Source of the DNA: an uncultured bacterium | GTDB taxonomy: Bacteria; Babelota; Babeliae; Babelales; Babelaceae | Direction: 5' to 3' | Assembly (NCBI GenBank): GCA_963717435.1 | Contig: OY970332.1 | Location: 256,001 to 320,000 of the forward strand | DNA length: 64,000 nt | Shown here: piece after piece, positions 44,617 through 64,000 of the stretch | Layout: each line of letters starts with the position of its first letter | How positions within the stretch are numbered: position 1 is the stretch's first letter | Notes under the pieces: generated by a model | The model's input: only the letters and a program-made list of their open reading frames with translations | Database searches by the model: none | Told to the model about the DNA's origin: nothing | Program-made: the position numbers and the translations under genes

Positions 44617-45276
44617 AATAATTTAGCAAAGAGAATAACAACGGCAGTGATACTTGGCCCAATTTTTTTGGGCATTATGCTTTTTGCTCCCGCCATAATT
44701 TTTTCATACCTGCTTGCTCTTATTCTTGCGGCGATTTTAATATTCGAGTGGCCCAAGTTGTTCCCAAATAATTTTTTACTAGCCACATTAATTTCTCCAA
44801 TTTACCCCATACTCCCGTTTATATTATTAATTATTCTTAACCAGTCGGGCCCAGATTATAGACCAGTTATATTTTTAATATTCTTTGCAGTATTTGCATT
44901 CGATTCCGGTTCATATTTTGCGGGAAATCTTTTTGGAAAAACTAAAATTTTGCCACAAGTTAGCCCAGGAAAAAGTTGGGAGGGGTTTATCGGCGGAGCC
45001 TCAAGCTGCTATTTAACAGTATTAATTTTTTTTAATTATTCAAAAATTATAAATTTATTTAAATTTTCTCACCAAAATCTACAGCCAAAATTATTACTAA
45101 TCTCGCTAATAATTTCTATACTTGCGCTTATCGGCGATCTATTTGAATCTTATCTTAAACGCAGAGTAAATCTTAAAGACTCTGGCGACATTCTGCCTGG
45201 GCACGGCGGGCTACTTGATCGCTTTGACGCAGTTATGTTCGTTGCATATTTAATTATTTTTTTAAAATTTATTTAA
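44608..45276 (+). CDS. cdsA: Phosphatidate cytidylyltransferase
   Basis: DSGSYFAG, SPGKSWEG, GDLFESYLKR, KDSG..LPGHGGLLDRFD; start TTG 44608 or GTG 44614. Confidence 0.95.
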   Translation: MSVNNLAKRITTAVILGPIFLGIMLFAPAIIFSYLLALILAAILIFEWPKLFPNNFLLATLISPIYPILPFILLIILNQSGPDYRPVIFLIFFAVFAFDSGSYFAGNLFGKTKILPQVSPGKSWEGFIGGASSCYLTVLIFFNYSKIINLFKFSHQNLQPKLLLISLIISILALIGDLFESYLKRRVNLKDSGDILPGHGGLLDRFDAVMFVAYLIIFLKFI

Positions 45277-46087
45277 AGTAAACATTTTCTAATTCCGGAT
45301 TCAAAAACAATACTGCCGTAGAAACATTAGAAAATGTATGCAAAAACTTATCACATCTTGATAACAAAACAGCTTCTATCAAAACTTCTTCGCCCTTAAG
45401 GGCTCTGTCACCACCCATTAGATGAATAGGATTACCTGTTGTTGATCTATGACTGTTATAATAAATTACTCGGCCATGAAGCTTTTTCTTGGCCATATCA
45501 AGAAGATATTGCTCATCAGTTGCAACCAGAAATTGATATCCGGAGAAACTATTTGCGTAATCAAAGATTATATTTAGATCAGTGGGAGCAACTTCAATTT
45601 TTTTATCGGTCCCCCTTAAATGTATCCCTATAGTTTTTTTACCTAACATTCCCATGTTATAAAAATTTTCTATTTTCTTTAATATATTGGGCTTAATTTT
45701 AATATATTTTTTTATAATCGCATTAACCCGCAGTCTCTCGAGCTTATCGGGATTTTCAGCTTGGACTACGCAACAGTTATCGGGAGGATAAAATGCGTAA
45801 AATATTTTCTCGCCTGGAAAGTATTTAAATTTATTAATGGGCTCAAAATAATATTCCCAACAGTTTTGGCTGCCATTATAGCCATTTTTTTGATAATAAA
45901 GACAATAATTCTTACTCCAATAAATCGCCAATTGCTGCCTATTTTTTTCTGCCCAATCTAGATGGTTTATGACATCAAAAACGCAAGAGAATAAACCTGC
46001 TGATCTGCACCCTAAAACATATTTACTGTGAATATTATAAGAAGAACTTAAATATATAATAAATAATAGTTTTTTATTAAAAAACAT
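45269..46087 (-). CDS. NodZ/GT23-like fucosyltransferase-family protein with signal-like N-terminus
   Basis: IGIHLRGTDK, FLVATDE, EAVLLSRCD..SNVS. Confidence 0.8.
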   Translation of the reverse strand: MFFNKKLLFIIYLSSSYNIHSKYVLGCRSAGLFSCVFDVINHLDWAEKNRQQLAIYWSKNYCLYYQKNGYNGSQNCWEYYFEPINKFKYFPGEKIFYAFYPPDNCCVVQAENPDKLERLRVNAIIKKYIKIKPNILKKIENFYNMGMLGKKTIGIHLRGTDKKIEVAPTDLNIIFDYANSFSGYQFLVATDEQYLLDMAKKKLHGRVIYYNSHRSTTGNPIHLMGGDRALKGEEVLIEAVLLSRCDKFLHTFSNVSTAVLFLNPELENVYFK

Positions 46088-46208
46088 AATATTGCCCCTA
46101 TTTTCATGTCCCCAATAAGTAGTTTAAATTTGACTAAACTAAGATAAAAATAATATTATTGCATCAAAATTTACAACGGTTTAAACAAAAAAAAGTTGAG
46201 CAGATTAC

Positions 46209-47183
46209 ATGAAGAAATCTCTATTATTAGCTATATCTCTAATATCAGTTGTTCAAATTCAAAGCAAAAAAGTTGTCCTACTGCCATTTTCTTACATGCA
46301 AGACGAAAGAAGCTTTTTCCAAAAAAATACCCTCTGGGATAAGCTTAAAATAAGATTAAAAGAAAAAAGGGGCCTGGATTTAAGATTATATTCCGCATGT
46401 AGGGGCGAGATTTACCCGGATGACATAATAGTGTCGTTTAATGTTCATGATCCAAGTCTGAGTCTAATAAGAGTATATCCTGAAGCCAAACACGTTTTAT
46501 ATATTTTTGAGCCACCGACAGTTGATCAAAGAAGCCATGACAAAAATTATCATAGACACTTTCAAAAGATTTTCACATGGCGCGATGATTTTGTAGATAA
46601 TACAAGATATTTCAAGTTTTACTTGCCCATGATAGTAAATCTACCAGATACACTCATGAATTTTAATCAACGCAAATTCTGCTGCACAGTACTTGCCAAC
46701 AAGCACTCTTCTTATCCACTGGAAATATACACCGAACGCAGATCGATAATTAATTTTTTTGATAAAAATTATAATAGTGATTTTGATCTTTATGGCCAGG
46801 GCTGGTCAAATAACGAATTTTCTTGCTACCGCGGCGCTCCCCAAAACAAAGATGCGACAATAAAGCAATACAAATTCTGCGTATGCTATGAAAACACAAA
46901 AAATATTCCTGGTTATGTAACTGAAAAAATGTTTGAGTGCCTATCATCAGGGACAGTGCCCATATATCTGGGTGCCCCGAACGTGGAACAATATGTGCCC
47001 AAAAACTGCTTTATTGATAGAAGAGATTTTGCTTCGAATCAAGAAATGTACGACTATTTAAAAAATATGCCAGAAGAAACTTATAATAATATTATCGATA
47101 ATATTATTAACTATTTAAAAACTGATAAAGCTAAGCTTTATTCTTGGGAGAACTTTATAGATATTTTTGTTGAGGGAATTTGA
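46209..47183 (+). CDS. GT10 alpha-1,3-fucosyltransferase-family protein with signal-like N-terminus
   Basis: YKFCVCYENT..PGYVTEKMFECLSSGTVPIYLG. Confidence 0.88.
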   Translation: MKKSLLLAISLISVVQIQSKKVVLLPFSYMQDERSFFQKNTLWDKLKIRLKEKRGLDLRLYSACRGEIYPDDIIVSFNVHDPSLSLIRVYPEAKHVLYIFEPPTVDQRSHDKNYHRHFQKIFTWRDDFVDNTRYFKFYLPMIVNLPDTLMNFNQRKFCCTVLANKHSSYPLEIYTERRSIINFFDKNYNSDFDLYGQGWSNNEFSCYRGAPQNKDATIKQYKFCVCYENTKNIPGYVTEKMFECLSSGTVPIYLGAPNVEQYVPKNCFIDRRDFASNQEMYDYLKNMPEETYNNIIDNIINYLKTDKAKLYSWENFIDIFVEGI

Positions 47184-47230
47184 AACCGATAAATTTTAAT
47201 TTAAAAGTATAAAAAAGTGAGAAAATAATC

Positions 47231-47932
47231 ATGAAGTATAAATACTTACTGCTGTTAATATTATTAAATACAAGAATCTGCTCTGCCAATTTTTATAGCC
47301 AAGTTGGACAAGATAAATATGTTTATGAAACTTTTTTCAAAAATAAAACTATCGGAACATTTATTGATATAGGAGCGCATGATGGCGAAACTTACAGTAA
47401 TAGCAAGTTCTTTGAAGATTTAGGGTGGAACGGGGTTTGCGTAGAACCGTTACCAGAAAAATATGAAAAATTGGAAAAAATAAGAAAATGCAAAACTATT
47501 AATGCTTGCGTTGCGCCGGCAACTGGGAATGTAAAATTTATAAAGGCTATAGGTGCAAATGGTTATTGTCTTGAAATGCTGAGCGGCATGCTGGATACTT
47601 ATGATCCTAGACACCTAAGTAGACTTAGAGCTGAAATTCATAATCATGGCGGAACTTATGAAGTTGTCGATGTTCGAGCTAAAAATATAAATGAAATTTT
47701 GGATGAAGCGAATATCAATCACGTTGACTATTTAACACTTGATACAGAAGGAGGCGAACTGGAAATATTAAAGACTTTAGATTTTTCAAAATATTATATT
47801 TATATAATAGATGTAGAAAATAATTATCAGGACCCACACATAAAAAACTTTCTACAAGAAAAAGGGTTCCTCCATATTCATACAATGCTAATGGATGAAA
47901 TATACGTAAATACAAAATCACCAACAAATTAA
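47231..47932 (+). CDS. FkbM-family methyltransferase with signal-like N-terminus
   Basis: SQVGQD, FIDIGAHDG, GVCVEP, LDTEGGELEIL. Confidence 0.9.
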   Translation: MKYKYLLLLILLNTRICSANFYSQVGQDKYVYETFFKNKTIGTFIDIGAHDGETYSNSKFFEDLGWNGVCVEPLPEKYEKLEKIRKCKTINACVAPATGNVKFIKAIGANGYCLEMLSGMLDTYDPRHLSRLRAEIHNHGGTYEVVDVRAKNINEILDEANINHVDYLTLDTEGGELEILKTLDFSKYYIYIIDVENNYQDPHIKNFLQEKGFLHIHTMLMDEIYVNTKSPTN

Positions 47933-47980
47933 ATTTATGAAGATTTAAGAAATTACAATCAAGAAACTTAAATTTGATGA

Positions 47981-48823
47981 TTAATTATTCTTTCTCCAAT
48001 AAACCCCAAAACCGTCAATATTATAAATGACATCTTTGATATTATGCATTGCACGATAATCATTAACAGCTTTAACGCAACATGGCATATTAAAATCATC
48101 AATGATTACAAAACCTCCAATTGATAATTTAGGGTATAAATTTTTTAAGGCATCCATTGTGGATTCATACAAGTCTCCATCTAATCGCAACAAAGAGATT
48201 TTGTCCATCGGTGCTTTTGGCAATGTATCTTTAAACCAGCCCTTTAAAAAAATAACTTTATCATCTAAAAGACCGTATCTTCGAAAATTTTCTTTAACGT
48301 CTTCTAGTGATACTGCTAAAAATTTTTGTCTATCTAAATCCATGCCTTTATCTTCCGGATAATCTGTCACATTAGGCGCTGGCAGCCCTTCGAATGAATC
48401 AGCAACAAAAACTCGTCTTTTGGAGTCTCGATATATCTTTAGAGCACCTCTCATTAATATAGTTGCTCCGCCTCTCCATACCCCAGTTTCAATTAAATCC
48501 CCCTCAATATCATCTTTTAGAATGGTTTCAATACAATTTTGAATATTTGTTAGTCTGTGCCATCCAATCATAGTATGACCTGTCAGGGGCCAATCTTTCC
48601 CGCCTAATCTTTTTTCCAAATTAAAATTAATTATGGTAAATGAATTGCAGCTGCCTTCTGCAGAATCCGTTTGATAAATTATATTCAACAATGATCTTTT
48701 AAGTAAATCTAAATAGGACGATTCAGGAGTTTGGGGTTGTTCAAAAGGTAAAGTATCTGAATATGCCAGAAGCGAATAATTAAACAAAAAAGCTATTAAT
48801 AAAAAAAAATTAATTAATTTCAT
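47981..48823 (-). CDS. TylF/MycF/NovP-family sugar O-methyltransferase with signal-like N-terminus
   Basis: TMIG..RL, GDLIETGVWRGG, ADSFEGLP, KGWFKDTL, LRLDGDLYEST, IIDD. Confidence 0.93.
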   Translation of the reverse strand: MKLINFFLLIAFLFNYSLLAYSDTLPFEQPQTPESSYLDLLKRSLLNIIYQTDSAEGSCNSFTIINFNLEKRLGGKDWPLTGHTMIGWHRLTNIQNCIETILKDDIEGDLIETGVWRGGATILMRGALKIYRDSKRRVFVADSFEGLPAPNVTDYPEDKGMDLDRQKFLAVSLEDVKENFRRYGLLDDKVIFLKGWFKDTLPKAPMDKISLLRLDGDLYESTMDALKNLYPKLSIGGFVIIDDFNMPCCVKAVNDYRAMHNIKDVIYNIDGFGVYWRKNN

Positions 48824-48927
48824 CTGATTCCTCTTTTATTAAAAAATTGTAGCTTTAAAAATATTAAATATACAATAGTTGTCAAATTAAAAATTATTTA
48901 AAAATATTTTTTAATCACCAAGTAGAA

Positions 48928-49596
48928 TTACCAATATGTTATCTGTGTTACACCTGTTCCAAATATATTAGCTTCAAGATTTAGATTATCAAATTTCTTA
49001 ATTTTTACTTTTGTTGAAATTGAATTAATAAATTGTGCCACCTCATATTCTATGTTTATTTGAAGCCTCTCCATGTGTTCAAGGTCCAATTTATTAAACA
49101 TCTCTTTAAAATATTTAGCTCGCATGGCAAAACAACCTGTGAAAACTTGCCCTATCGAATCCAATTTTATAAAAATATCGCTTTCTGGATCAGCTTCTAT
49201 TGATCTAATAAAATAATCATTAAGAAATTTATATCTTGCTGTAATTTTTAAAATAATATCATCATCATTAAAATTAAAATTGTCCAAAGCTAAAATAATG
49301 GATTTTGCTTCATTAATTCCCTTATTTTTTAAATTGAAATTATTAGATTTAGAATAAAATATATTTGTGGACAATTCATCTAGAAACGTGGGACTGGAAG
49401 AGCAAGATTCTACAATAAATGGTTCATAACCATATTTTTTTATAATATTAATACCAAATATATATTCTTGTTTGCGCATTTCGAATTGATTAGAAATTAA
49501 AGCTGCTGTAGCTAAAATCTTAAGACTCGCCATAATATTTGCTTCAATTGAACAAAAAAGTAAAAGTCTTATAACTAAAGTTAAATTAATTTTCAA
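48928..49596 (-). CDS. Hypothetical protein of glycan cluster (possible glycosyltransferase-like) with signal-like N-terminus
   Basis: NKGINEA, ILKITARY; context only for function. Confidence 0.65.
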   Translation of the reverse strand: MKINLTLVIRLLLFCSIEANIMASLKILATAALISNQFEMRKQEYIFGINIIKKYGYEPFIVESCSSSPTFLDELSTNIFYSKSNNFNLKNKGINEAKSIILALDNFNFNDDDIILKITARYKFLNDYFIRSIEADPESDIFIKLDSIGQVFTGCFAMRAKYFKEMFNKLDLEHMERLQINIEYEVAQFINSISTKVKIKKFDNLNLEANIFGTGVTQITYW

Positions 49597-49738
49597 ATGA
49601 TCCCCTTCGAATTTAAAATAAACTCATAATAAAATTATTAATTAAAATCTTGTTACTAAATAAATTACTTGACAGTAGAAGATATGTAAAATTAAATTAT
49701 TTTTTATAAGATATTTATTAAAAAAAGGGAGAATCATA

Positions 49739-50962
49739 ATGGGAATTAAAAATTATTTTATTTTTATAAAATTTATCAATTTAAAAAATAATTTTTTTAT
49801 TATAAGAATATTATTTTTATTTTTATTAAATGTTAATTTTATAACTATTTTTTCACAAGGAAATAAAATTATTGACATTAATAGATTATCTAATGAATGG
49901 CCAACTGCTTCTATTGATAAACAAGAAGCTTTGCTTACAGAATACTTAAATTATGCTCTTCAACCAAGTGCACCAAATAGACATACTGCTTTAGAACGTC
50001 TTAGACAACTTCAAAGTGTTGTAAAAAAATTTGGATTTAATACACAAAATTCATCGCTTAAACAGACACTTGAAACTATAGTTAACCAAGAAGTTATTTT
50101 AGTTGATGCGGCTATTGGAATGAATATTCCAAATTGGTGCGGTACTATTTCAACGAGTTATTTAACTGGGGACAATATTGCTTTTTTATGTAAGCATAGG
50201 ACATTCAAGGTTAATGGATATTCATCATTTTTTTATAATTTTGATCCTGATAACGTTAAATATGGTGATACAGTATTTGTGGTTACAAATTATTTAGATC
50301 TTTTTTTTGATGTGTATCATAAACAAATTAAAGAATCGTATGTTTTAGTAACAGATAATTCGGATTCTCCTGTACCAGCAAAATTTTCAAATTTTTTAGA
50401 AGATGAAAAAATTTTAGCTTGGTTTTGCATAAATCCTGATGAAACAAAGCATGAAAAATTGAATTATATTCCATTGGGAATCAAAAACCATGGTTATGGC
50501 GGAGAAGAACCAAACTTTATGGATAAAATGTTGGGATATAAAGGTCTTTCTAAAAACTATCTTCTATATATAAATTTTAATTTAAACCATCAAGATCGCC
50601 ATGATGCAATTCATTTTTTCAAAGATAAAGCATGGGCAACGAAAACTTCTAGAAAAAGCCCACATGAATTTTTTAAAGACATAGCACAATCAAAATTTGT
50701 CCTGAGTCCACGTGGATGCGGTCTTGATTGCTGGAGAACATGGGAAATATTATTATTAGGTAGTATTCCGATAGTAAAACATTCACCATTAGATAAACTA
50801 TTTGAGGAGTTCCCCGTTTTGATCGTTAATAATTGGGATGAAATTACGCCAGAATTTTTAGAAATAAAATATAAAGAGATATCCGAAAAGACTTTTGACT
50901 ATAATAAATTATTTGCTGAATATTGGGGAAGAAGAATTAATTCTTTATTTAAGAATAATTAA
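49739..50962 (+). CDS. Exostosin/GT47-like protein with hydrophobic N-terminus
   Basis: SKFVLSPRGCGLDCWRTWEILLLGSIPIV; paralog of 56796..57755. Confidence 0.75.
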   Translation: MGIKNYFIFIKFINLKNNFFIIRILFLFLLNVNFITIFSQGNKIIDINRLSNEWPTASIDKQEALLTEYLNYALQPSAPNRHTALERLRQLQSVVKKFGFNTQNSSLKQTLETIVNQEVILVDAAIGMNIPNWCGTISTSYLTGDNIAFLCKHRTFKVNGYSSFFYNFDPDNVKYGDTVFVVTNYLDLFFDVYHKQIKESYVLVTDNSDSPVPAKFSNFLEDEKILAWFCINPDETKHEKLNYIPLGIKNHGYGGEEPNFMDKMLGYKGLSKNYLLYINFNLNHQDRHDAIHFFKDKAWATKTSRKSPHEFFKDIAQSKFVLSPRGCGLDCWRTWEILLLGSIPIVKHSPLDKLFEEFPVLIVNNWDEITPEFLEIKYKEISEKTFDYNKLFAEYWGRRINSLFKNN

Positions 50963-51051: not shown

Positions 51052-51756
51052 ATGAATTTTAAAAAATATTTAGTTTTTTGTTTTATAACTTCAATATATT
51101 CAGCAGAAAAAGTATCTTTAGAAGAACAGAATTTAATTAACCATGTGAAATTAAGCATATCAAAAGCAGAACAACATGATTCTAAATTATCTGGCGGAGT
51201 AATTGATGTTTATGGAATGACCAGTTTAAAAGTTAAATGTTTGCTAAATAATATTTGTTCATTAAGGGATTCAACTTATTTAGAAATTGGAGTTCATAAA
51301 GGCGGGACATTTACAGCAGCATTGTTTAATAATAAGAATAGTTTAATTGAAGCAACTGCTATAGATAATTGGTCGCAATTCGGTGGGCCAGCCGAAGAAT
51401 TCAAAGAAAATTGTTCAAAATTTATATCAGATATTGCATTTAAAGTTTGCAATGAAGATTGCTTCAAAATAAACAGAGAAAATTTTCTAAAATATCCTAT
51501 TAAAATTTATTTTTATGATGGAGATCATACTGAAGAAGCGCAATATCAGGCCTTTACATATTATGATTCACTCTTTGCAGACAGCTTTATAGCCATAGTT
51601 GATGATTGGAATTGGTCGTCAGTAAAAATTGGTACTAAAAAAGCATTTGAAAATTTGGGCTATAGTGTCCTTTACGAACAAGAATTGCCAGCAAAGTTTA
51701 ATGGAGATAAAGACCTATGGTGGCACGGCATATATATCGCTGTAATTCGTAAATAA
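51052..51756 (+). CDS. Class I SAM-dependent methyltransferase (Methyltransf_24-like) with signal-like N-terminus
   Basis: YLEIGVHKG, YFYDGDH, IVDDWNW. Confidence 0.85.
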   Translation: MNFKKYLVFCFITSIYSAEKVSLEEQNLINHVKLSISKAEQHDSKLSGGVIDVYGMTSLKVKCLLNNICSLRDSTYLEIGVHKGGTFTAALFNNKNSLIEATAIDNWSQFGGPAEEFKENCSKFISDIAFKVCNEDCFKINRENFLKYPIKIYFYDGDHTEEAQYQAFTYYDSLFADSFIAIVDDWNWSSVKIGTKKAFENLGYSVLYEQELPAKFNGDKDLWWHGIYIAVIRK

Positions 51757-51843: not shown

Positions 51844-52779
51844 TTAAATTTTCTTGCGGGTGTTAATATTTTGAAATAATTTTTTTATAGAATCTTTTAT
51901 ATTTGGGATACTTGGAAATTCTTTAAGTAATTTATTAGCATCTAGTTCATTATTTGAACGACGTGCTTTTAAAATTTTATCTTGTTCTTCCAGCGAAAAA
52001 TTGGTGTAACTAAAATTATTGTCTATATATTCTTTATATAAATCTAAAATCTCATTATGGGAAATAACTCCAGGATTAACAAAATTATAAACCCCTACAA
52101 GTCTGCGTTCTGCCATTTGTGGAATTAGCGGCAATAAATCTGATAAGATGCTCATTGAATTGGGGACGTTAACAACTTTTTGATATTTAGTAATTTTTGT
52201 AACAAAATTTCTTGGATGAAAGTCATCTGAAATTGGCATTCTCAGTCTTAGATTTAATGTATTTGGATATTCTTTAAGTAACTTATCTAGCATAATCTTT
52301 GTATAAGAATAAAACGATCCGGCAAAATTAGGTTCCTCTTCTTCTTTAAATCCAATTCCGCTATATATTGGATGATTTTTATCGTACTCATAAATGCATC
52401 CGGTTCCAATATTAATAAAATGGATATTATTTTTAAAAGAAATATCTGCCAAATTTAAGGCCCCAATTATATTAGATCTTATAGTTTCTTGCTTATGATC
52501 TTCGCACCAATCAACATTGGGAACACCTGTAACTCCTGCAGCATTTATAACGCAATCAGGTTTTTCTTTTTGAATCTCTAATTCTAAAGACTCTCTATTT
52601 TCTAACCTAGTTTGAGTGGCAACAACTTGGTAATTTGCATCAGTTAAGATTTTGACAATTTTTTGTCCAATCCATCCGGTTTTTCCACCAAATACTAAAA
52701 TTTTTTTAATTTCTGGATCATTATTTGATGAGTTTAAGTTAATAGATAAAAATATAAAAAAAATAAAATTATTTTTCAT
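51844..52779 (-). CDS. NDP-4-keto-6-deoxyglucose 3,5-epimerase/4-reductase (NRS/ER type) with signal-like N-terminus
   Basis: FGGKTGWIG, NAAGVTGVPNVDWCEDHKQETIRSN, GTGCIYEYD, LRLRMPI, PRNFVTKITKY.KVVNVPNSM. Confidence 0.88.
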   Translation of the reverse strand: MKNNFIFFIFLSINLNSSNNDPEIKKILVFGGKTGWIGQKIVKILTDANYQVVATQTRLENRESLELEIQKEKPDCVINAAGVTGVPNVDWCEDHKQETIRSNIIGALNLADISFKNNIHFINIGTGCIYEYDKNHPIYSGIGFKEEEEPNFAGSFYSYTKIMLDKLLKEYPNTLNLRLRMPISDDFHPRNFVTKITKYQKVVNVPNSMSILSDLLPLIPQMAERRLVGVYNFVNPGVISHNEILDLYKEYIDNNFSYTNFSLEEQDKILKARRSNNELDANKLLKEFPSIPNIKDSIKKLFQNINTRKKI

Positions 52780-52790
52780 GTTTTTCCAGT

Positions 52791-53558
52791 TTAACGTTTA
52801 AAAATAAAACAAATACCACAATAAAAATGGATTCCACGTATTTCATTTTGATAATAAGACAGATCTTTTAATATGGAATCTGGACACGCGCCTTTATTTG
52901 CACAACCAGATTTTGCTCCAACGAAATTTAAATCATGCACTAATTCTAATAAGAAATTTATGGTTGTTTGTGGACCGGCTTGAGGATTATCTTGAGAGCC
53001 GCCGCCCCCCCAATTTTTCCAGTATGACGTGTGAAGGTCTTCTATAATATAAACTCCGCCACTTTTAACATGCGGAAAAAGCATTTTAAAGCTAATTATC
53101 TGTTGATCCATCGTATGTCCACCATCATCTAAAATAATATCAAAATTCCCACCCGAAAATTGTATAAATTTTTCCAGTTGTTCTTTATCGGATTGATCAG
53201 CAACAAAAAAGTTGGATCTTGTAAGTCCATGGCTGTATTTTAAAAATGCATTAGGATCAATATCAATAAAATAAAAAGATGCCTTTGAAAAATACCCTTC
53301 CCACATTCTAGCGGAGTTTCCAAGTAAAAATCCAATTTCTAAAAATTTTATAGAAGAATCTTTGAGCTTAGAAAAATACCATTCATATATAGAAGTATAC
53401 TTATGACTTATTGAGCTTTTATCTGTATTGCAATTTTTACCAATAATATCCAATTTATCAGATGACTCATCAATGATGCGTTCTGCAGAGGTTTGATGAG
53501 AAAATGATAAAAATATAAAGATAAATGTCGGTGCCGCTAATAAATTATTATTTAACAT
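52791..53558 (-). CDS. Class I SAM-dependent sugar O-methyltransferase (MycE/TylE-like) with signal-like N-terminus
   Basis: TDKS..HKY, FLEIG, DQSD, DIILDDGGH, GGVYIIEDLHTSYW. Confidence 0.85.
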   Translation of the reverse strand: MLNNNLLAAPTFIFIFLSFSHQTSAERIIDESSDKLDIIGKNCNTDKSSISHKYTSIYEWYFSKLKDSSIKFLEIGFLLGNSARMWEGYFSKASFYFIDIDPNAFLKYSHGLTRSNFFVADQSDKEQLEKFIQFSGGNFDIILDDGGHTMDQQIISFKMLFPHVKSGGVYIIEDLHTSYWKNWGGGGSQDNPQAGPQTTINFLLELVHDLNFVGAKSGCANKGACPDSILKDLSYYQNEIRGIHFYCGICFIFKR

Positions 53559-54917: not shown

Positions 54918-55676
54918 TTGAAGAAAAATTTTATCTTATTTTTGTTTATTTTTAGCAAAATCAATTCTAAATTTTATCTCGATTTAAAGATTAGTGTTTT
55001 TGAGCAGTTACAAAAAAATTCCCTTATTTATCCTGAGCAACCCATTAAATTGCATCTTGGGTGTGGTGAAAGTTATCTTCCAGGATATATCAATGTTGAT
55101 TTTCCTCCATCAGATCATACTGTGCAAACTAAAAGCGTGGCCGATGTTTATGCCGATGTTATAAATTTGCATTTTCCTGAAAATTCCATTGATGAAGTTA
55201 GATTGCACCATCTTTTTGAACATTTTGATAGGCCAACCGCATTGGGTTTATTATGCAAATGGCAAAAAAGCTTAAAAATTGGGGGTATGGTTTTCATCGA
55301 GACGCCCGATCTTGAAGAGAGCATGAAATTGTTCTTAGGTGATCTTCTTTCTTATGAAGAAAAACAAATAGTGTTAAGACATGTTTTTGGTTCTCATGAA
55401 GCTAGATGGGCGATTCATTGTGATGGATGGTACGGTGAAAAATTTGTTAAAGTCTTAGAGCAGCTTGGTTTTTCAATAATATCAGTCGAAAAAAGCTCTT
55501 GGAAATTGACGCAAAACATTACAGTTAAGGCTATAAAAATATCTAATTTATCTATCCATGAACTTAGATCTAAAGTTTTTGATATATTTGATTCAAGCTT
55601 GGTAGATTACTCGGATGGAGAACAAAAAATTAGATCTGTATGGATGTCAGAATTTAACCAAATTTTTAATAAATAA
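54918..55676 (+). CDS. Class I SAM-dependent methyltransferase (type 11-like) with signal-like N-terminus
   Basis: KLHLGCG...GYINVD, HLFEH, LKIGG..IETPD. Confidence 0.82.
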   Translation: MKKNFILFLFIFSKINSKFYLDLKISVFEQLQKNSLIYPEQPIKLHLGCGESYLPGYINVDFPPSDHTVQTKSVADVYADVINLHFPENSIDEVRLHHLFEHFDRPTALGLLCKWQKSLKIGGMVFIETPDLEESMKLFLGDLLSYEEKQIVLRHVFGSHEARWAIHCDGWYGEKFVKVLEQLGFSIISVEKSSWKLTQNITVKAIKISNLSIHELRSKVFDIFDSSLVDYSDGEQKIRSVWMSEFNQIFNK

Positions 55677-55726: not shown

Positions 55727-56695
55727 TTAACTTTTTTCAAATAAATCCAATAATTTTTGAGTTGTTTTTAAGTCGGTCATATTATTCAAAACCCATTTTC
55801 TCGGTTTGAACGTTAATAAGTTGTCATTTATATTTAAAATTATTTCACTAAATTGATTAATATTAGACCAAAACAAACCTGTTGACTTACTAAGGTACGG
55901 AGCCGATGAAATATAAGCATAGAATACGCCACAGTACAAATGAGTGCCTCCTCTCTCCCAAACTAAGGTTGGAACATCCATGGACCAACTTTCTGCAAGC
56001 GCCAAACCTTGCGATTCACTTGTCGATAAAAAAACTGCAAATTTTGCTCTCAATAAAGCCTCTTTGAATTGGCTGTGATTATGATTGCCATATTTTATAA
56101 TTTCGACTCTCCAGCCATTATTTTGCAGTATTGTTTGAACATTATTTAATAAATTATTATCACAATTTTTGCAATATATAAGGGCAATTTTAGAATCATA
56201 ATTTTTATTTACTGGGTCCCAATAAACTTCATTAACTCCTGCGGGCCAAATTTTAATTTTATTTCGTAATCTTATATCTAATTTTTTTTGAGCATCAGCC
56301 ACCCACTCACTTGGAACCAAAATTGTATCTATCTCATTTGCCATTAAAAGTCCTCTTTCTTCTAGTGGTGAGCCCGCCATATTGGGACCAACTAATATCT
56401 TTTTTACCTTACCAGCATTTTTTAAATCTATCGCTTGTCTTAATGCATGAAAATCAGATAAAACAAGAACAAATTCACCAACATCTGAGGTATTTATTGG
56501 ATTATAATTGAAATCCATATTTAGTCTTTTTAAGCCTTCATAAATACTTCTTGTTACCCCGAAATGGCCAGAATCATGGAGATTTTGAGATCCATTGCCA
56601 ATGGGTCTTGTTAATAAAGTTATTTTTGAATGCGTAGTAACAAATTGCAAAACTAAAAATAAAAAAAACGATAAAAAAGTAAATTTTTTTGACAT
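55727..56695 (-). CDS. GT-B (GT4-like) glycosyltransferase with signal-like N-terminus
   Basis: LVPSEWV, STSESQGLALAESWSMDVP (EX7E-like). Confidence 0.72.
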   Translation of the reverse strand: MSKKFTFLSFFLFLVLQFVTTHSKITLLTRPIGNGSQNLHDSGHFGVTRSIYEGLKRLNMDFNYNPINTSDVGEFVLVLSDFHALRQAIDLKNAGKVKKILVGPNMAGSPLEERGLLMANEIDTILVPSEWVADAQKKLDIRLRNKIKIWPAGVNEVYWDPVNKNYDSKIALIYCKNCDNNLLNNVQTILQNNGWRVEIIKYGNHNHSQFKEALLRAKFAVFLSTSESQGLALAESWSMDVPTLVWERGGTHLYCGVFYAYISSAPYLSKSTGLFWSNINQFSEIILNINDNLLTFKPRKWVLNNMTDLKTTQKLLDLFEKS

Positions 56696-56795: not shown

Positions 56796-57755
56796 TTATT
56801 TTTTAAAAAACTTGTTTCTTTCCTGATTGATTTTTTCTACCCAGTATTTCATATATAATTTTTCAAAATTGTAATCTTTTTTGCTCATTATTTCTTCATA
56901 TTTTTTATTTAAAAATTCTTCTGTAATCTCATTCCAATCTTTAATAACAAGAACGGGCAAGTCGCTAAAAAGGTCATCAAGACTGCAAGATCTAATTATA
57001 GGGATTGAGCCTACCAATAATGCTTCCCAATGTCTATAACAATCAAGCATGTCACCCCAAGGAGAAAGAACAAATTTAAAGTCAGCCATTTCTTCAAGAA
57101 ATTCAAAAAACGGCTTTCTTTGAATTTGATAATTTTTAATTGTGCATGTGCAATATGCCTTATCTTTAAATAATTTATAAACAGGCTCTCTCTCTTGCGT
57201 ATTATTTTGTATACAAAAATTCATATATAATAATTTGGTCTTAGGTTTATTCTTTAATCTATTAAATGCTTGGAACGCTTGCTTTCTATTTTGATATATA
57301 GACTCATCCCTAAATACTCCCAATGGGATATTTATAAATTTTGGAAATGCTAAATTATTAGCATTTCCAAGCCAAGCAATTATTTTAGGATCATATATAT
57401 ATGGCTCAATTGCGCCACAAAATAATGAAATTAGGACATATGGATATTTTATTTTTGGATGAATTTCTTTCCAAAACTTGTCCAATACGAATGCATTTGT
57501 AAATATAATACTTCCTGCAGGTACTTTTTCGGGTGAAAATGGGTATGGATTTATAAAATTATTTGTTCCGCCATCCCAAGGCGTAGCGTACTGAAAATCA
57601 GCTATATTCCTCCAAGATTCTCTGTGTATAAATATTTCTTCTAAATTTTCTATGAGCTTTGTTTTTGGAATTTCATAAAGTCCATATTCTGATTCTATAG
57701 CAAGAATATTGGCACTTATGTTAAAAATAATTGTTAATAAAAATATGAATAACAT
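56796..57755 (-). CDS. Exostosin/GT47-like protein with signal-like N-terminus
   Basis: FKFVLSPWGDMLDCYRHWEALLVGSIPII; paralog of 49739..50962. Confidence 0.75.
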   Translation of the reverse strand: MLFIFLLTIIFNISANILAIESEYGLYEIPKTKLIENLEEIFIHRESWRNIADFQYATPWDGGTNNFINPYPFSPEKVPAGSIIFTNAFVLDKFWKEIHPKIKYPYVLISLFCGAIEPYIYDPKIIAWLGNANNLAFPKFINIPLGVFRDESIYQNRKQAFQAFNRLKNKPKTKLLYMNFCIQNNTQEREPVYKLFKDKAYCTCTIKNYQIQRKPFFEFLEEMADFKFVLSPWGDMLDCYRHWEALLVGSIPIIRSCSLDDLFSDLPVLVIKDWNEITEEFLNKKYEEIMSKKDYNFEKLYMKYWVEKINQERNKFFKK

Positions 57756-57784: not shown

Positions 57785-59188
57785 TCAATTTATTTTGCTA
57801 GATTGACCCAAAACATTGCAAGTAAATCCAATATTTCTTAAATCCTCATGGGGTAAAATATTTCTTGTATCAAAAATTATTGGCTGATTCATAACGGAAT
57901 AGATATTTTCAGCATCTAAAGTTTTAAATTCATCCCATTCTGTTAAAACAACAAGCATATCTGCATCTTGAGCTGCTTCGACGACATTAGGACAATAATC
58001 TATATTGGGAATAATTTTTTGCATATTGATCATAGCTATCGGGTCATATGCTTTTACTATGGCCCCTTTTTTTAATAATTCTTGAATTACTGTAATTGCT
58101 GAAGATTCTCTAACATCATCTGTGTTAGCTTTAAAAGCTAAACCTAAAATTGAGATGGTTTTGTTGTTTACGTCACCGCTTAATATTGAACATATGCGCT
58201 CGACAACCCGAAGTTTTTGAAGTTCATTAGTATCAATAGCGGCCCTAACTACACTTAAATTTACGCCTACTTCTTCTGCCGATTTTAATAAAGCATGTGT
58301 ATCTTTGGGAAAACACGAACCACCAAATCCTGGGCCCGGCTTTAAAAATTGATGTCCAATTCTCTTATCAAGTCCCATGCCACGAGAAAGATCTTCGCAA
58401 TTAGCCCCCACCTTTTCACATAGGTTAGCCAACTCATTTATGTATGATATCTTAACCGCAAGAAAACCATTAGAGGCATATTTTATTGCCTCAGCTGTCA
58501 CAATATCTGTAGCTAAAAATGGCACTTTGTTTTCTATTAATGGCGCGTATAAATTTTGCATGATTTCTTTTGATTGAGTTGTATCCGATCCAATCACAAT
58601 TCGATCAGGATTAAAAAAATCAAAAACCGCGCTTCCTTCGCGCAAAAATTCTGGATTTGAAACTACTGTAACCAGATCAAGAACATTTTTTTCTTTCATT
58701 ATAGATTTAATTCGATTTCCTGTTCCAATAGGTACCGTACTTTTTGTGCAAACTATTTTGGGGGAGTTTATATTATCAGCTATTGTATTTGCAACAGCCA
58801 ATATTTGGGAGATATCAGCTTTTCCATCGGAAGATTGCGGTGTTCCAACGGCTAAAAAAATTATCTCAGAAGCTTGTATCGCCCCTTCAAGATCATAAGT
58901 GAATTCCAGCTTTTGCGCCGCAACATTTTTTTTAATTAATTCAGTTAATCCCGGTTCATAAATTGGTATGATCCCTTGTTGTAATCTATGGGCAACCTGT
59001 TTTCGTGTTATTTTCTCTTCATCAATATCGGCACATATTACAGTATGCCCGAGTTCTGCTAGTCCAGTACCCAAAACTAAACCCACATATCCGGTTCCCA
59101 AGATAGTGACTTTGTAGCTATTTTCTAAAGAAAATATATTTGAGCTTTGAAATAATAATAAAACACCAAAAATAAAATTCTTTAACAT
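57785..59188 (-). CDS. ugd: UDP-glucose 6-dehydrogenase with signal-like N-terminus
   Basis: GTGYVGL, IYEPGL, AVGTP, KSTVPIG, SNPEFLREG, GFGGSCFPKD, GLAFKANTDDVRES. Confidence 0.95.
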   Translation of the reverse strand: MLKNFIFGVLLLFQSSNIFSLENSYKVTILGTGYVGLVLGTGLAELGHTVICADIDEEKITRKQVAHRLQQGIIPIYEPGLTELIKKNVAAQKLEFTYDLEGAIQASEIIFLAVGTPQSSDGKADISQILAVANTIADNINSPKIVCTKSTVPIGTGNRIKSIMKEKNVLDLVTVVSNPEFLREGSAVFDFFNPDRIVIGSDTTQSKEIMQNLYAPLIENKVPFLATDIVTAEAIKYASNGFLAVKISYINELANLCEKVGANCEDLSRGMGLDKRIGHQFLKPGPGFGGSCFPKDTHALLKSAEEVGVNLSVVRAAIDTNELQKLRVVERICSILSGDVNNKTISILGLAFKANTDDVRESSAITVIQELLKKGAIVKAYDPIAMINMQKIIPNIDYCPNVVEAAQDADMLVVLTEWDEFKTLDAENIYSVMNQPIIFDTRNILPHEDLRNIGFTCNVLGQSSKIN

Positions 59189-59210
59189 TTTTTACTCCCA
59201 AAAAATTATT

Positions 59211-60845: not shown

Positions 60846-61054
60846 TAAATCTCTCTTATTTTAATTTTGAACAGGCCAACTAAAATATTTTCTTCAAGAT
60901 ACAATTTCCTACCATAATTTTTCAATATGTTTTTAAAAAAAATATTTTTTTGATATTAATATTTTTTTAAATGGATTTGTTGAAATTTGGGCTGAATTTC
61001 ACGAACAATGGAACGCTAATATTTTGTTTTTTAATGAAAATGTTAAATAAAGCG

Positions 61055-61078
61055 TTCACCGGACTAAAATCCGGTGAA
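61055..61078 (-). terminator. Hairpin downstream of 61095 ORF
   Basis: TTCACCGGA-CTAAAA-TCCGGTGAA. Confidence 0.55.
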
Positions 61079-61094
61079 TCGCGCTAAATTTCGA

Positions 61095-62096
61095 CTATAT
61101 TTGCGATTTTTGTAAATAATAATATATTCGAGGATCACTGTATGATCTTTCTAATACATTATTAAAATGGAGATAAGCGCGTTTGCCAATTTGTTCTCCT
61201 AGACACATCAATCCGGACCAAAGTTCATGGTGAAATTCAGGATCTTTATAGTGATTCATACCCTCGCACAGCTTTTTTAAAAACTCTTTTTCAGGTCCAT
61301 CAACTTTTGAGATAATCAATTCAGCTTCAATTACTTCATCATTGGTATAATTTGAACCGTCGAATAAGCGGCTAACTGTGCAAGCTTTAACAATTGGCGA
61401 AAAATCAACCGCATATTTGGTTTTATCATAAGCAAGAAGCATATCCCCTACAAGATAAAAAACAAATTTTGAATTTATCTCTAAAAGATTAGAACACACA
61501 TCTTGAACAGTTGGATAAGCCCAGCAGCCAATAAATTCTTTATCATCTATTTTTGTTCCAAAGCCACGAATATCATCGACAATAATTACGCAATTTTCTG
61601 TTTTACTATTTTTAATTGCGTTAATTTCTTTTCTTATTGCAGTTATTCCATCTCCGGAATCAGGCCCCTCTTTATCCACAGCTGTCCCTTGCCCACAATA
61701 ATGGGCATCTAGAAAAAATAAGACATTTTTATTTTTTTCTAAATCGGGTAGCAAAGTTTTAAATATTTCTGCAGAACTTCCCTCATATACAAATATCTTC
61801 TTATTATGTTGAAATTTATTTTTCGCCTCCGAAAACATTTTTTTATCGAGTTCTATAGTGTGAACTTCGTTAAATATCTTAGAAGCGATTTCCGTTGTTC
61901 CACCATTATAAGTTCCAGATTCTACAAAAATATCTATATTAAATATTTTTTTCATCTGATTTAAAAAATCTGCATCTAAAGAACCTTCGGCAGTTTTGTG
62001 GCTAGTAAAAAGAATTTTTTCTGCACATATTATATTAATATTAAGCAGTAACAATAATTTAACCAACGCTTTTATAGTTATATTTTTTTTCATCAT
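61095..62096 (-). CDS. SAM-dependent methyltransferase-like protein with signal-like N-terminus
   Basis: FVESGTYNG, VHTIEL, EGSS, FFLDAH, IIVDD. Confidence 0.75.
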   Translation of the reverse strand: MMKKNITIKALVKLLLLLNINIICAEKILFTSHKTAEGSLDADFLNQMKKIFNIDIFVESGTYNGGTTEIASKIFNEVHTIELDKKMFSEAKNKFQHNKKIFVYEGSSAEIFKTLLPDLEKNKNVLFFLDAHYCGQGTAVDKEGPDSGDGITAIRKEINAIKNSKTENCVIIVDDIRGFGTKIDDKEFIGCWAYPTVQDVCSNLLEINSKFVFYLVGDMLLAYDKTKYAVDFSPIVKACTVSRLFDGSNYTNDEVIEAELIISKVDGPEKEFLKKLCEGMNHYKDPEFHHELWSGLMCLGEQIGKRAYLHFNNVLERSYSDPRIYYYLQKSQI

Positions 62097-62125
62097 TAGC
62101 TTTCCCTAAATAATTTATATAAAAC

Positions 62126-63010
62126 TTAAAGTGGCCTATATGGAGGCAGACTTCGAATGTGGTCATCCATGCGTTTTTGCAAATCAACATCTTTTTTATG
62201 ATCACTAATTGGGTTCATGTCGTTATAAGTGTAAAGAACCTTTGAGATAAATCTAAAATGTCCCCTACTTGCCATTTCTATCATAGGCACCCAGGTTGCC
62301 ATATCACCAGTCATCTGCAAAAATTCTCCATTTATCATTAAATCTTCTTTTTTTATTCTTTTGAATAGCCATGCCCTGCAAGTTCTTAGGTGAGATGGGA
62401 TATGTTTATACCCTCTGAAAAAATTATTCTTATAAACATCTTCTGGCATAGCACGGCAAAAGCCAACTTGTCCGTTAGAAAGATGTTTAAACTGACCGTA
62501 GGTTAACCAAACATTTGGGTCACTATAAACTTCATTTAAATATTTGAAAACTCCCGTGTTGGCCAGTCCGTCGTCTCCATCAACAATAATAATAATATCA
62601 TTATCATTGCATTTCATGATTTCTTCATACTGGTTTTGAAGGGCACCCAATCTTTTTGTATTTGTCCTATACTTGAATTTCGGCCACAAATTTTTCTGAT
62701 TTACATAAGTACGTATAACGTCCTGTTGACCGTCAGTTGAATTATCATCTACATATCTAATTTCATAATTAGAATAATCCTGTGCAAAAATAGTTTTTAA
62801 GCTCCACAAACATGTTACGTGTTGGCCAAGTTGGTCCGTTCTAAAAATTCTATTGTTATTATAAGATGCCATTATAACAACAATTTTTTGCTCCGGTATA
62901 TTCTTGGTACTATCGGCTGAAAAGAGATTAAAAATTGAAAAAATCGATAAGATAGGCCAGAAGAGCGCCGTGATGTAAAAACGCTTTGTATATAATTTTA
63001 AATGCAACAT
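62126..63010 (-). CDS. GT2 glycosyltransferase with hydrophobic N-terminus
   Basis: MASYNN, YVDDNSTD, VDGDD, WLTYGQF, SHLRT; paralog of adjacent ORF. Confidence 0.88.
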   Translation of the reverse strand: MLHLKLYTKRFYITALFWPILSIFSIFNLFSADSTKNIPEQKIVVIMASYNNNRIFRTDQLGQHVTCLWSLKTIFAQDYSNYEIRYVDDNSTDGQQDVIRTYVNQKNLWPKFKYRTNTKRLGALQNQYEEIMKCNDNDIIIIVDGDDGLANTGVFKYLNEVYSDPNVWLTYGQFKHLSNGQVGFCRAMPEDVYKNNFFRGYKHIPSHLRTCRAWLFKRIKKEDLMINGEFLQMTGDMATWVPMIEMASRGHFRFISKVLYTYNDMNPISDHKKDVDLQKRMDDHIRSLPPYRPL

Positions 63011-63031
63011 TGTCTACCTCAAAATTAATTA

Positions 63032-64000
63032 TTACGGTTTACTTTCTAGCGGAGTATAAATTGGCAACTCGTGACGTATATAAAGATCTATGGCACGCTG
63101 CATAGACTTATTTACTCTGTGATCACTTATTGGGTTAGAGTCGTTATACCAATACAAAACATCAGGTATAAATCTAAAATGTCCCTTGCTTGCCATTTCC
63201 ATCATGGGCAACATTAAAGCCATGTCATAGGTCATGGGGAAATAGTCGCCTATATAATTTTTGTCAGGGGTATTAATCCTTTTACCTAGTTCTACAGTAA
63301 CTTTAAGATGTTCTGGTTTTATTCTTTTTGCCAACCAAGCCTTGAACGTTCGCAAATGGGTAGGAATCGTCGGATGGAATCTAAAAGTATTTGCAAGAAC
63401 GACACCTTGCGGCATTTCCTTGTTAAATCCAAGTTCGCCACTATGAAGTTCTTTGTATTGTCCGTAAGTTATCCAGACGTTTTTATCTTTATATACTTCG
63501 TTCAGAAATTGCAAAACCTTGGGATGAGCCAGTCCATCGTCGCCATCCAAAATTAATATTATATCTTCGTCTTTACAGCTATTTATTGCTTCCCACAAAT
63601 TATGCAAAGCAAGCTTTCTCGTCTCATTAATTTGTACGGATATTTTGTGTCCCATATCATGTTGATTGACGTACTCGTTAACATAGTAACCTGTTCTATC
63701 AGGAGATTTGTCATCTATTACTTTCATCTCCCAAGTAAAATCCCCGCCTTCCTGTAGCATTACCGTCTTTATATTAAACTCACAGGTTCTCATCTTATAT
63801 GGAACACCAGGGACATCTATAAAGCCGGCATTTTTGTAAGACGGGGTGATAATCACAAAGTGATTTTTTTCAAGATTTTTATCAAACACCCGACTTGGTT
63901 CTTCCAAATTGAATTCAGGATTTTTCTGAGCATCGAGCTGACCAGCGGAATCTCTGCCGTGCAAATTGGATTCAGGATCTTGTTGAACAGCACATTGCTC
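63032..64000 (-). CDS. GT2 glycosyltransferase (5' end beyond window)
   Basis: TPSYKN, IDDKSPD, LDGDD, WITYGQY, THLRT; frame stays open to the window edge. Confidence 0.88.
   Translation of the reverse strand, partial: EQCAVQQDPESNLHGRDSAGQLDAQKNPEFNLEEPSRVFDKNLEKNHFVIITPSYKNAGFIDVPGVPYKMRTCEFNIKTVMLQEGGDFTWEMKVIDDKSPDRTGYYVNEYVNQHDMGHKISVQINETRKLALHNLWEAINSCKDEDIILILDGDDGLAHPKVLQFLNEVYKDKNVWITYGQYKELHSGELGFNKEMPQGVVLANTFRFHPTIPTHLRTFKAWLAKRIKPEHLKVTVELGKRINTPDKNYIGDYFPMTYDMALMLPMMEMASKGHFRFIPDVLYWYNDSNPISDHRVNKSMQRAIDLYIRHELPIYTPLESKP

Follow-up and report, generated by a model that had tools for sequence, protein, structure and literature searches.

Why should a whole set of sugar enzymes, of a kind that bacteria ordinarily keep inside the cell, begin one after another with what looks like a signal for leaving it? 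In the textbook picture, bacterial nucleotide-sugar chemistry and Leloir glycosyltransferases are cytoplasmic, and their products are exported on lipid carriers. The question is raised by a gene island of an uncultured bacterium of the order Babelales in the phylum Dependentiae, whose members infect protists (assembly GCA_963717435.1, contig OY970332.1), found in a stretch of 64,000 nucleotides (G000:C1:256001-320000 in the coordinates used here), which is referred to below as the window. The original prediction, made from the letters of the window, held that a complete module of nucleotide-sugar enzymes, glycosyltransferases and O-methyltransferases carries signal-peptide-like N-termini and is exported. 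The enzyme families concerned are all known; what is unusual is that a nucleotide-sugar, transferase and methyltransferase pathway should be tagged for export in its entirety, and that the tag is conserved. Judging from the leader sequences and their relatives, some form of export of the island enzymes is quite probable.

The leaders in the genome and among relatives

The genome is a single contig of 1,198,203 bp (34.6% GC) that is 88.8% complete. Within the window the island occupies positions 45269-64000 and comprises 17 complete open reading frames (ORFs) and one truncated by the window edge, and it extends past the window to G000:C1:324961 (window-equivalent 68961) as 23 consecutive ORFs over 23.7 kb, with starts set at the first ATG, GTG or TTG after a stop. 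It lies in the bacterial chromosome between cdsA on one side and ogg/radA on the other, with a GC content of 27-31% across much of its length against 34.6% genome-wide. An ORF was scored as leader-bearing if, near the N-terminus, the mean Kyte-Doolittle hydropathy over 9 residues was 2.0 or more, provided that no membrane span came further on. This rule flags all 23 island ORFs and 476 of the 1089 ORFs in the genome (43.7%; hypergeometric P 4e-9), so that the leaders claimed for the 17 complete ORFs are found again and the run grows to 23 of 23. It is the longest flagged run in the genome, the runner-up being 10; none of 20000 shuffles reached 23 (maximum 20), and in a separate set of 5000 one gave a run of 25. 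As the hydropathy rule is crude, comparative evidence is preferred here over such run statistics.

The 23 leaders contain an uncharged stretch with a median of 16 amino acids (range 10-26), which reaches at least 20 in five of them, and the flank on its N-terminal side has a net charge of at least +2 in 21 of the 23 proteins. Neither a lipobox nor a twin-arginine (RR) motif occurs in any of the island leaders (0/23 each). A BamD/YfiO-like outer-membrane lipoprotein just outside the island has a clear lipobox (LSSC), and the island leaders belong to a different signal class. The leaders are also specific. The housekeeping enzymes GpsA, UppS, MurG, Tgt and DnaG of the window have Pfam domains that begin at residues 5-26 and are without a hydrophobic leader, in agreement with the original prediction, which had further proposed a search for signal-less copies elsewhere in the genome. 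Such a search finds WecC, GMD, Fcl, ManC, a GalU-like protein and WecB, all of them leaderless and with the catalytic domain first. WecC belongs to the same family as the UDP-glucose 6-dehydrogenase (Ugd) of the island, and GMD and Fcl to the same superfamily as its 4,6-dehydratase, its UDP-glucuronate decarboxylase (UXS) and its NRS/ER-type bifunctional 3,5-epimerase/4-reductase.

Homologues were counted at a query coverage of at least 60% in six relatives, over neighbourhoods of 40 kb, and in 25 loci found via NRS/ER, L033 being excluded since its contig is identical to that of G010. Grouped by the phylum label in the record titles of the metagenome-assembled genomes (MAGs), a leader is present in 72 of 77 homologues titled Dependentiae or related, in 9/9 titled Chlamydiae or Rhabdochlamydiaceae, in 13/14 titled Pseudomonadota and in all 23 unlabelled ones, which makes 117 of 123, and the leaderless exceptions are mostly truncated ORFs or fall just under the threshold. 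Among seven distant homologues (at most 42% identity, from candidate-phyla-radiation and gammaproteobacterial MAGs) one has a leader. Orthologues from other genera and phyla (30-74% identity) retain the leader as a physicochemical property and not as a sequence. The Ugd orthologues in four other genera of the family (G011, G009, G003 and G005; 48-51% identity) have leaders of unrelated sequence, and the Ugd of G028, from another family of the order, begins at the Rossmann motif. Among the best 120 database matches to NRS/ER, the Rossmann motif lies close to the N-terminus in 114, of which 108 have a hydrophobic segment.

Homologues from viruses look different. On IMG/VR contigs, which provide relatives for 11 island families, the upstream hydrophobic segment is found in 0 of 172 proteins, and the alignments start at viral residue 2-4 as against bacterial residue 21-42. 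The 4,6-dehydratase, the domain of which begins at residue 42, has a leader in 16/16 bacterial and 0/63 viral homologues. A contig of a giant-virus MAG (L050, 25% GC) carries five leaderless island families within 7 kb, namely the GT-A family, the GT10-like gene, the 374-aa family, the GT-B family and NRS/ER. On a second contig (L051) the dehydratase and NRS/ER stand beside two further ORFs with N-termini that presumably resemble the giant-virus major capsid protein. The RXYLT1-like protein, used as a single query in the viral scan, returned no viral relatives. Read from these alignments, the leader is an addition made in intracellular bacteria to otherwise leaderless enzymes, as had been supposed: it is kept in orthologues and absent from viral and distant bacterial homologues.

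These comparisons bear on the possibility that the leaders are artefacts, either over-extended starts or chance hydrophobicity in AT-rich DNA. ORF calling from the first start codon, a genome of 34.6% GC and a rule that flags 43.7% of all ORFs would each favour such an error. Against it stand the orthologues, which at 30-74% identity keep an open and hydrophobic N-terminus of unrelated sequence, the leaderless same-family paralogues in the same genome, and the viral homologues, which are AT-richer (21-25% GC) and yet leaderless; the position-specific, tripartite profile of the NRS/ER leaders described below is a further argument. The claim that AT-rich composition does not by itself produce the leaders is thus upheld, and an artefact is extremely improbable.

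The module also appears to have moved between lineages. In the NRS/ER tree the phylum labels are intermingled, a minimum of four changes being required for the Dependentiae label, and a Babeliaceae copy falls together with copies titled Pseudomonadota and Chlamydiae (supports 100/96 and 88/93); in the best tree the 19 leader-bearing NRS/ER rows form one side of a branch, as a single origin would predict, but at a support of only 42/29. Island proteins are 55-58% identical to the Chlamydiae-titled copies, compared with 26-49% for seven flanking genes, and within the phylum the NRS/ER family is patchy, being found in 41 of the 261 genomes and in 8 of the 21 families. The mixed labels, the high identity across phyla and the patchy distribution suggest a mobile module. 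Such transfers would be understandable if the enzymes needed nothing but Sec in each new bacterium, which speaks for action in the bacterium's own envelope or vacuole.

The composition of the tagged set differs among relatives. In two loci (L040 and L042) a GMD homologue that is 63-64% identical to the leaderless GMD of the present genome bears a leader, which implies that the set of export-tagged sugar enzymes varies between lineages. An ORF resembling short-chain epimerases/dehydratases (SDR) with a clear leader lies at a distance from the island in this genome, and its relatives adjoin island-like genes in L039, L040 and L042. A MAG of Vermiphilus pyriformis (L027), a carrier cultured in Vermamoeba, has a leader-bearing dehydratase/NRS-ER pair, and a methyltransferase and a GT6 with leaders as well. 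In the same locus the GT-A-fold family of the 299-aa island protein is expanded to four tandem leader-bearing paralogues; this family has 59 leaderless homologues on viral contigs.

Signal peptide or membrane anchor

The anatomy of the leaders is best resolved in NRS/ER, for which 111 relatives were anchored on the Rossmann motif and profiled; the small residues at -3/-1 were profiled in this family only. Lysine and arginine are enriched from -36 to -27, hydrophobic residues dominate from -24 to -16, where charged residues make up 0-2%, and alanine reaches 21% at -13 and 28% at -11 as compared with 4.5% in the mature protein. The alanine positions are followed by a conserved lysine and the beta-1 strand (K-T-F-L-V-F-G-G). 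The hydrophobic core is about 10-12 residues long and is separated from the first Rossmann strand by about 8 residues, of which about 2 follow the predicted A-x-A site. Among 114 relatives the mean charge of the N-flank is +2.5 and an RR-like motif occurs once. The predicted mature N-terminus essentially coincides with the one that viral and candidate-phyla-radiation enzymes have without a leader. This n-, h- and c-region layout argues for a substrate of signal peptidase I, of which the genome encodes one gene.

The alternative is that the leaders are uncleaved inner-membrane anchors, with the catalytic domains either cytoplasmic and supplied with ordinary donors or facing the periplasm as type II proteins, which the original prediction had likened to those of the Golgi. 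Many eukaryotic relatives of the GT10, GT6, UXS and RXYLT1 proteins are indeed type II membrane proteins, and uncharged stretches of 20-26 residues are found in five of the 23 leaders, those of TylF, the RXYLT1-like proteins of 407 and 319 aa, the 255-aa Methyltransf_24 protein and the 294-aa GT2. A lipid-linked route would also be permitted by the cytoplasmic GalU-like, ManC, GMD and Fcl proteins together with distant WecA-like, PMT-type GT-C and Wzx-like genes. However, the median uncharged stretch falls below the length of a membrane span, 18 of the 23 stretches being shorter than 20 aa, and the positive charge on the N-terminal side in 21 of the 23 predicts an N-in/C-out topology and not a cytoplasmic domain. 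In NRS/ER the alanines at -3/-1 are followed by the first strand with no stem between, so that the Rossmann fold would be forced against the membrane if the leader stayed on as an anchor. A flippase and an initiating transferase are likewise not among the island proteins. Anchoring throughout the island is therefore improbable.

The likeness to Golgi enzymes is thereby a partial one. Like the type II enzymes of the Golgi and UXS1, which use imported nucleotide sugars in a lumen outside the cytosol, the GT10, GT6, RXYLT1/GT47-like and UXS proteins of the island have an N-terminal hydrophobic segment. Unlike them, the island proteins have cores that are mostly too short, A-x-A sites after the core and no stem region; Ugd, the dehydratase and NRS/ER, which are cytosolic in eukaryotes, are leader-bearing in the island. 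Conservation and anatomy of the leaders thus leave export as the best reading of what the original prediction proposed, and the Golgi-type anchoring that it offered as a variant is not borne out.

If the proteins cross the membrane, the route would be Sec. TatC was not found in the genome (88.8% complete), and given the lack of RR motifs the tightly NAD-binding enzymes, the dehydratase and UXS, would have to bind NAD after export. A comparison of cysteine patterns between leader-bearing bacterial and leaderless viral members of five families, in which gained disulfides would have hinted at folding in the periplasm, revealed no systematic difference.

Enzymes of the island and related gene clusters

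Assignments were made from Pfam, NCBIfam and PDB sequence searches and two structure predictions (Table 1). Pfam recognises in the 23 ORFs Ugd, a UXS-like protein, a 4,6-dehydratase, an NRS/ER-like SDR, a GT10, a GT6, two GT2 and two RXYLT1_C/GT47-like proteins, a weak NodZ-like and a weak GT1-like protein, an FkbM, a TylF, three Methyltransf_24 and a Methyltransf_11 protein, and leaves five without a family. The structure predictions add one GT-A-fold and one GT-B-fold protein, after which three island proteins are without assignment; the GT-A-fold protein, of 299 aa, represents a new family with an invariant DxD. In total there are four nucleotide-sugar enzymes, about ten glycosyltransferases and 6-7 methyltransferases.

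Table 1. Genes of the leader-bearing island and other features mentioned in the text. Positions are those of the window unless a genome or locus prefix is given.
Feature	Position	Strand	Evidence and remarks
NodZ-like protein (GT23-type fucosyltransferase, weak similarity), 272 aa, leader	45269..46087	-	PF05830 E 1.5e-5, below cut-off; leader-bearing homologues in L039
GT10-family (fucosyltransferase-type) glycosyltransferase	46209..47183	+	PF00852 E 2.7e-19; leader is MKK followed by 16 uncharged residues
FkbM-family methyltransferase, leader	47231..47932	+	PF05050 E 8e-21; leader-bearing homologues in L033, L040, L042
TylF-type sugar O-methyltransferase, leader	47981..48823	-	PF05711 E 4.7e-96, domain from residue 42
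Conserved 222-aa protein, leader	48928..49596	-	no Pfam or NCBIfam match; leader-bearing homologues in 7 loci
RXYLT1_C-like glycosyltransferase (407 aa)	49739..50962	+	PF24785 E 1.4e-8; 26-residue uncharged segment, possible signal anchor
Methyltransf_24 methyltransferase, leader	51052..51756	+	PF13578 E 1e-6
NRS/ER-type bifunctional 3,5-epimerase/4-reductase (UDP-L-rhamnose synthase type), leader	51844..52779	-	PDB 4qqr E 1.5e-103
Methyltransf_24 methyltransferase (255 aa), leader	52791..53558	-	PF13578 E 6.7e-7; leader in 8/8 bacterial and 0/6 viral homologues
NDP-glucose 4,6-dehydratase (RmlB-like), leader	53565..54710	-	TIGR01181 E 4.5e-90, below equivalog cut-off; PDB 6bi4 E 3.3e-67
Methyltransf_11 methyltransferase, leader	54918..55676	+	PF08241 E 1.9e-4
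GT-B-type glycosyltransferase (GT1/GT4-like, weak), leader	55727..56695	-	PF00534 E 7e-4, below cut-off; leader-bearing homologues
RXYLT1_C/GT47-like glycosyltransferase (319 aa), leader	56796..57755	-	PF24785 E 6.2e-7, PF03016 E 1.9e-3; leader in 7/7 Dependentiae homologues
UDP-glucose 6-dehydrogenase (Ugd), 25-aa leader	57785..59188	-	three UDPG_MGDP_dh domains from residue 26; NF047673 E 1.4e-152
UDP-glucuronate decarboxylase (UXS), leader and N-terminal domain of ~190 aa	59211..60845	-	human UXS1 2b69 E 1.6e-79, aligned from residue 214
Conserved 333-aa protein, leader	61095..62096	-	weak RrnaAD/Erm (methyltransferase-like) matches only; leader-bearing homologues
GT2 glycosyltransferase (294 aa)	62126..63010	-	PF00535 E 1.2e-11; 22-residue uncharged N-terminal segment
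GT2 glycosyltransferase, leader	63032..64000, cut by window end	-	351 aa when complete, reaching window-equivalent 64087
GT6, GT-B-fold protein, Methyltransf_24, 374-aa protein, GT-A-fold protein	past window, up to G000:C1:324961		GT6: PF03414 E 7.9e-50
GspE/PilB-type ATPase gene, broken	41400-43146	-	8 internal stops, at least 3 frames, no homopolymer of 7 or more
BamD/YfiO-like lipoprotein	43276-44121		
SDR epimerase/dehydratase-like ORF, leader	G000:C1:898157-899170		
PilT-like T2SSE-family gene, 401 aa	C1:989676-990809		
Second glycan locus	G000:C1:508144-524840		leader- or anchor-bearing GT-like ORFs at 516668, 519176, 521536, 523392
GMD homologues, leader	L040:17777-18871, L042:6832-7950		
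Four tandem GT-A-fold (299-aa family) paralogues, leader	L027 11738-17662		

The genes represent two routes from UDP-glucose, to UDP-xylose and to UDP-rhamnose, the former by the adjacent genes for Ugd and the putative UXS. Neither enzymes for a fucose donor nor RmlA are encoded in the island. The description of the pathway as complete is accordingly an overstatement: it holds for the UDP-xylose and UDP-rhamnose routes and fails for the fucose donor, since GMD, Fcl and ManC lie elsewhere and are leaderless. NRS/ER is closest to the plant enzyme 4qqr (Table 1) and also matches a PDB entry named 'UDP-L-rhamnose synthase' (7jid, E 4e-64) far better than a bacterial enzyme of the RmlD type (1vl0, E 2e-6), and scores 57 bits against the TIGR01214 rmlD model, the cut-off of which is 224; by sequence it is of the plant and giant-virus type, in place of RmlC and RmlD. 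The best PDB and NCBIfam matches of the dehydratase are dTDP-glucose 4,6-dehydratases (sub-equivalog), so its use of UDP-glucose is only a proposal. Residues ~25-215 of UXS, between the leader and the catalytic domain, have no Pfam, PDB-sequence or ESM Atlas match, and this domain of ~190 aa is retained in the G009 and G005 orthologues. Of sequencing runs, none with RNA was listed, and four soil-metagenome DNA runs show small shares (0.07-0.16).

Clustered sugar enzymes, transferases and modifiers in a patchy accessory island of low GC are also what O-antigen and capsule clusters of the Wzx/Wzy or ABC type look like. Unlike them, however, the present island contains no Pfam domain of a flippase, polymerase, chain-length regulator, ABC exporter or initiating phosphoglycosyl transferase among its 23 proteins; its gene orientation alternates, as was noted at the outset along with most of these absences; every enzyme is leader-bearing; and NRS/ER takes the place of RmlC and RmlD. 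A WecA-like gene and Wzx-like matches do exist in the genome but lie far from the island, which is thus not an O-antigen or capsule cluster of that kind.

The glycosylation clusters of giant viruses are closer. As in the UDP-L-rhamnose pathway of Mimivirus (R141/L780) and among the glycosyltransferase and methyltransferase genes of chloroviruses, a plant-type NRS/ER, a 4,6-dehydratase, a GT6 and methyltransferases are present, and families of GT-A fold (unk299), GT-B fold (unk325) and unk374 are shared, with five island families side by side in L050. Methylated rhamnose is described from Mimivirus glycans in the available text of PMC4691112. The viral proteins differ from those of the island in being leaderless and in working in the host cytoplasm or virus factory, whereas the island is leader-bearing and sits on a bacterial chromosome. 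By gene content, then, the island is related to the giant-virus glycosylation clusters and is not a member of them.

Where the enzymes may act

It is proposed that the enzymes leave the cytoplasm via Sec, that most of them would lose the signal peptide to signal peptidase I, and that the mature soluble enzymes would act in a space controlled by the parasite, be it the periplasm, the cell surface or the vacuole lumen. Host UDP-glucose would there be converted to UDP-glucuronate and UDP-xylose by Ugd and UXS, and to UDP-4-keto-6-deoxyglucose and UDP-L-rhamnose by the 4,6-dehydratase and NRS/ER. About ten Leloir-type glycosyltransferases would transfer the resulting and other sugars, and the product would be O-methylated with S-adenosylmethionine (SAM) to yield a methylated coat or matrix, containing rhamnose and xylose, on the bacterium itself. 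That the island is such a horizontally shared, Sec-exported glycan toolkit acting in the periplasm, at the surface or in the vacuole is, from its genes and leaders, about evenly poised between right and wrong.

The original prediction had taken it as a premise that the periplasm is not known to supply NAD(P), SAM and nucleotide sugars. This premise is weak for an energy parasite with three NTT-type (TLC) nucleotide transporters in its genome: host nucleotides must reach the periplasm for these transporters to work, which makes a supply of cofactors there plausible. Uptake of NAD+ occurs in environmental chlamydiae and that of SAM in both chlamydiae and rickettsiae, and E. coli has a periplasmic UDP-sugar hydrolase. 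No match to a GDA1/CD39 nucleoside diphosphatase or to Nuc_sug_transp was obtained in the genome, the controls likewise remaining unmatched, and one DMT-type ORF matched TPT weakly, below the threshold. A coat made by such a route may also fill a gap. Like TatC, the LpxC, Wzy_C/O-antigen ligase and Bac_transf families were not found in the genome at its completeness of 88.8%. The cell would thus seem to be a diderm in which neither a lipid A pathway nor Tat export is detectable, and without LpxC and the O-antigen-ligase families the cell may need another coat route. Dark-staining periplasmic material is described for Chromulinavorax in the available text of PMC6561590.

A second glycan locus lies elsewhere in the genome. 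It encodes leaderless WecB, WecC, a 720-aa oxidoreductase, ManC, GMD and Fcl together with a PMT-type GT-C membrane protein, and it also holds four GT-like ORFs with a leader or anchor (Table 1).

Several points weigh against an extracytoplasmic assembly of the glycan. Ugd requires NAD+ and NRS/ER requires NADPH stoichiometrically, and that either cofactor is available in the periplasm or vacuole is presumed. The GT10 and NodZ-like transferases are leader-bearing but ManC, GMD and Fcl are leaderless, so donors and transferases are mismatched. A search for a leader-bearing acceptor rich in serine, threonine and proline, near the island and genome-wide, gave no convincing candidate. The five leaders with long uncharged stretches may be uncleaved anchors. 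The hydropathy rule falsely flags UppS and misses some obvious leaders, and signal peptides are common in the phylum, being reported for 44% of the coding sequences of Chromulinavorax in the available text of PMC6561590. The phylum labels of the MAGs come from their record titles, and mis-binning is possible. Finally, since the same rule also finds leaders on 22 of the 28 ankyrin proteins of this genome, which are presumed to be directed to the host, a leader cannot separate the periplasm from the host as a destination.

The last point leads to the alternative that the enzymes are secreted further, across the outer membrane by type II secretion or in vesicles, and serve as effectors in the host cytosol or vacuole, where host or vacuolar targets would be glycosylated or the nucleotide-sugar pool of the host drained and rewired. 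Besides the leaders of the ankyrin proteins, this is suggested by Babela, in which 79 of 126 ankyrin proteins most probably enter the amoeba cytoplasm by secretion according to the available text of PMC4378268, and by the leaderless homologues of giant viruses, which work in the host cytoplasm (PMC4691112, available text), a compartment in which UDP-glucose, NAD(P) and SAM are at hand with nothing more to be assumed. Genes for two secretins, GspF and pseudopilins are present beside the island or elsewhere in the genome, and outer-membrane vesicles have been observed in Chromulinavorax (PMC6561590, available text). The sole GspE/PilB-type ATPase gene, which adjoins the island and is intact (568-672 aa) in 19 of 20 relatives, is however broken here, the other T2SSE-family gene of the genome being PilT-like. 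This counts weakly against type II secretion in the present strain; the ankyrin repertoire is intact (28 ORFs, mostly leader-bearing), and given this another secretion route or a recent loss of GspE is conceivable. Twenty-three unrelated folds would moreover need to be recognised at the outer membrane, and anew after every transfer between phyla, and a sequential pathway of 23 enzymes would be strongly diluted in the host cytosol. Chlamydiae, for their part, generally deliver effectors to the host cytosol by type III secretion and not with Sec leaders. An effector role is hence regarded as unlikely, although less so than anchoring.

The closest functional parallel to assembly in a parasite-controlled space is offered by Chlamydia trachomatis, whose glycogen enzymes are secreted to the inclusion lumen and fed by host UDP-glucose (Gehre et al. 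2016, available text of PMC4829429). In both cases glycan enzymes that are normally cytoplasmic would work outside the cytoplasm on host UDP-glucose in a controlled compartment, the location being predicted for the island. The two differ in that C. trachomatis uses type III secretion and makes a homopolymer, whereas the island has Sec-type leaders and a heteroglycan toolkit of about ten glycosyltransferases. The island in addition tags an NAD+/NADPH-dependent sugar interconversion and 6-7 SAM methyltransferases, and its module is shared between phyla.

A search of the literature returned no paper describing sugar-pathway enzymes with leaders from intracellular bacteria, be they Dependentiae, Chlamydiae or others, although the supplementary signal-peptide tables of Dependentiae genome papers could hold entries. 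The available portions of PMC6561590, PMC4378268 and PMC4776705 contain no mention of glycosyltransferases, rhamnose or polysaccharide.

More than 100 relatives keep the leader, and the titles of the MAGs that have it name three phyla of protist parasites. A broader proposal, more tentative than that for the island and somewhat doubtful as it stands, is that protist-infecting bacteria of at least three phyla carry out Leloir glycosylation, including nucleotide-sugar interconversion and SAM methylation, in a Golgi-like manner in the periplasm or a lumen, fed by the host through the outer membrane. Lipid carriers, flippases and lipopolysaccharide (LPS; here no LpxC was found) would then be unnecessary for a surface glycan, and the mobile module would be exchanged between these bacteria and also with giant viruses, a Sec leader being added enzyme by enzyme. 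Cultured Dependentiae such as Vermiphilus pyriformis, in which part of the module is present, would allow the localisation to be tested. Export, if confirmed, would explain the coat of a diderm without detectable LPS genes, link the glycosylation toolkits of bacteria and giant viruses and provide a source of naturally secretion-compatible sugar enzymes. It would also mean that energy parasites exploit the metabolites of their host not only by importing them but also by biosynthesis outside their own cytoplasm.

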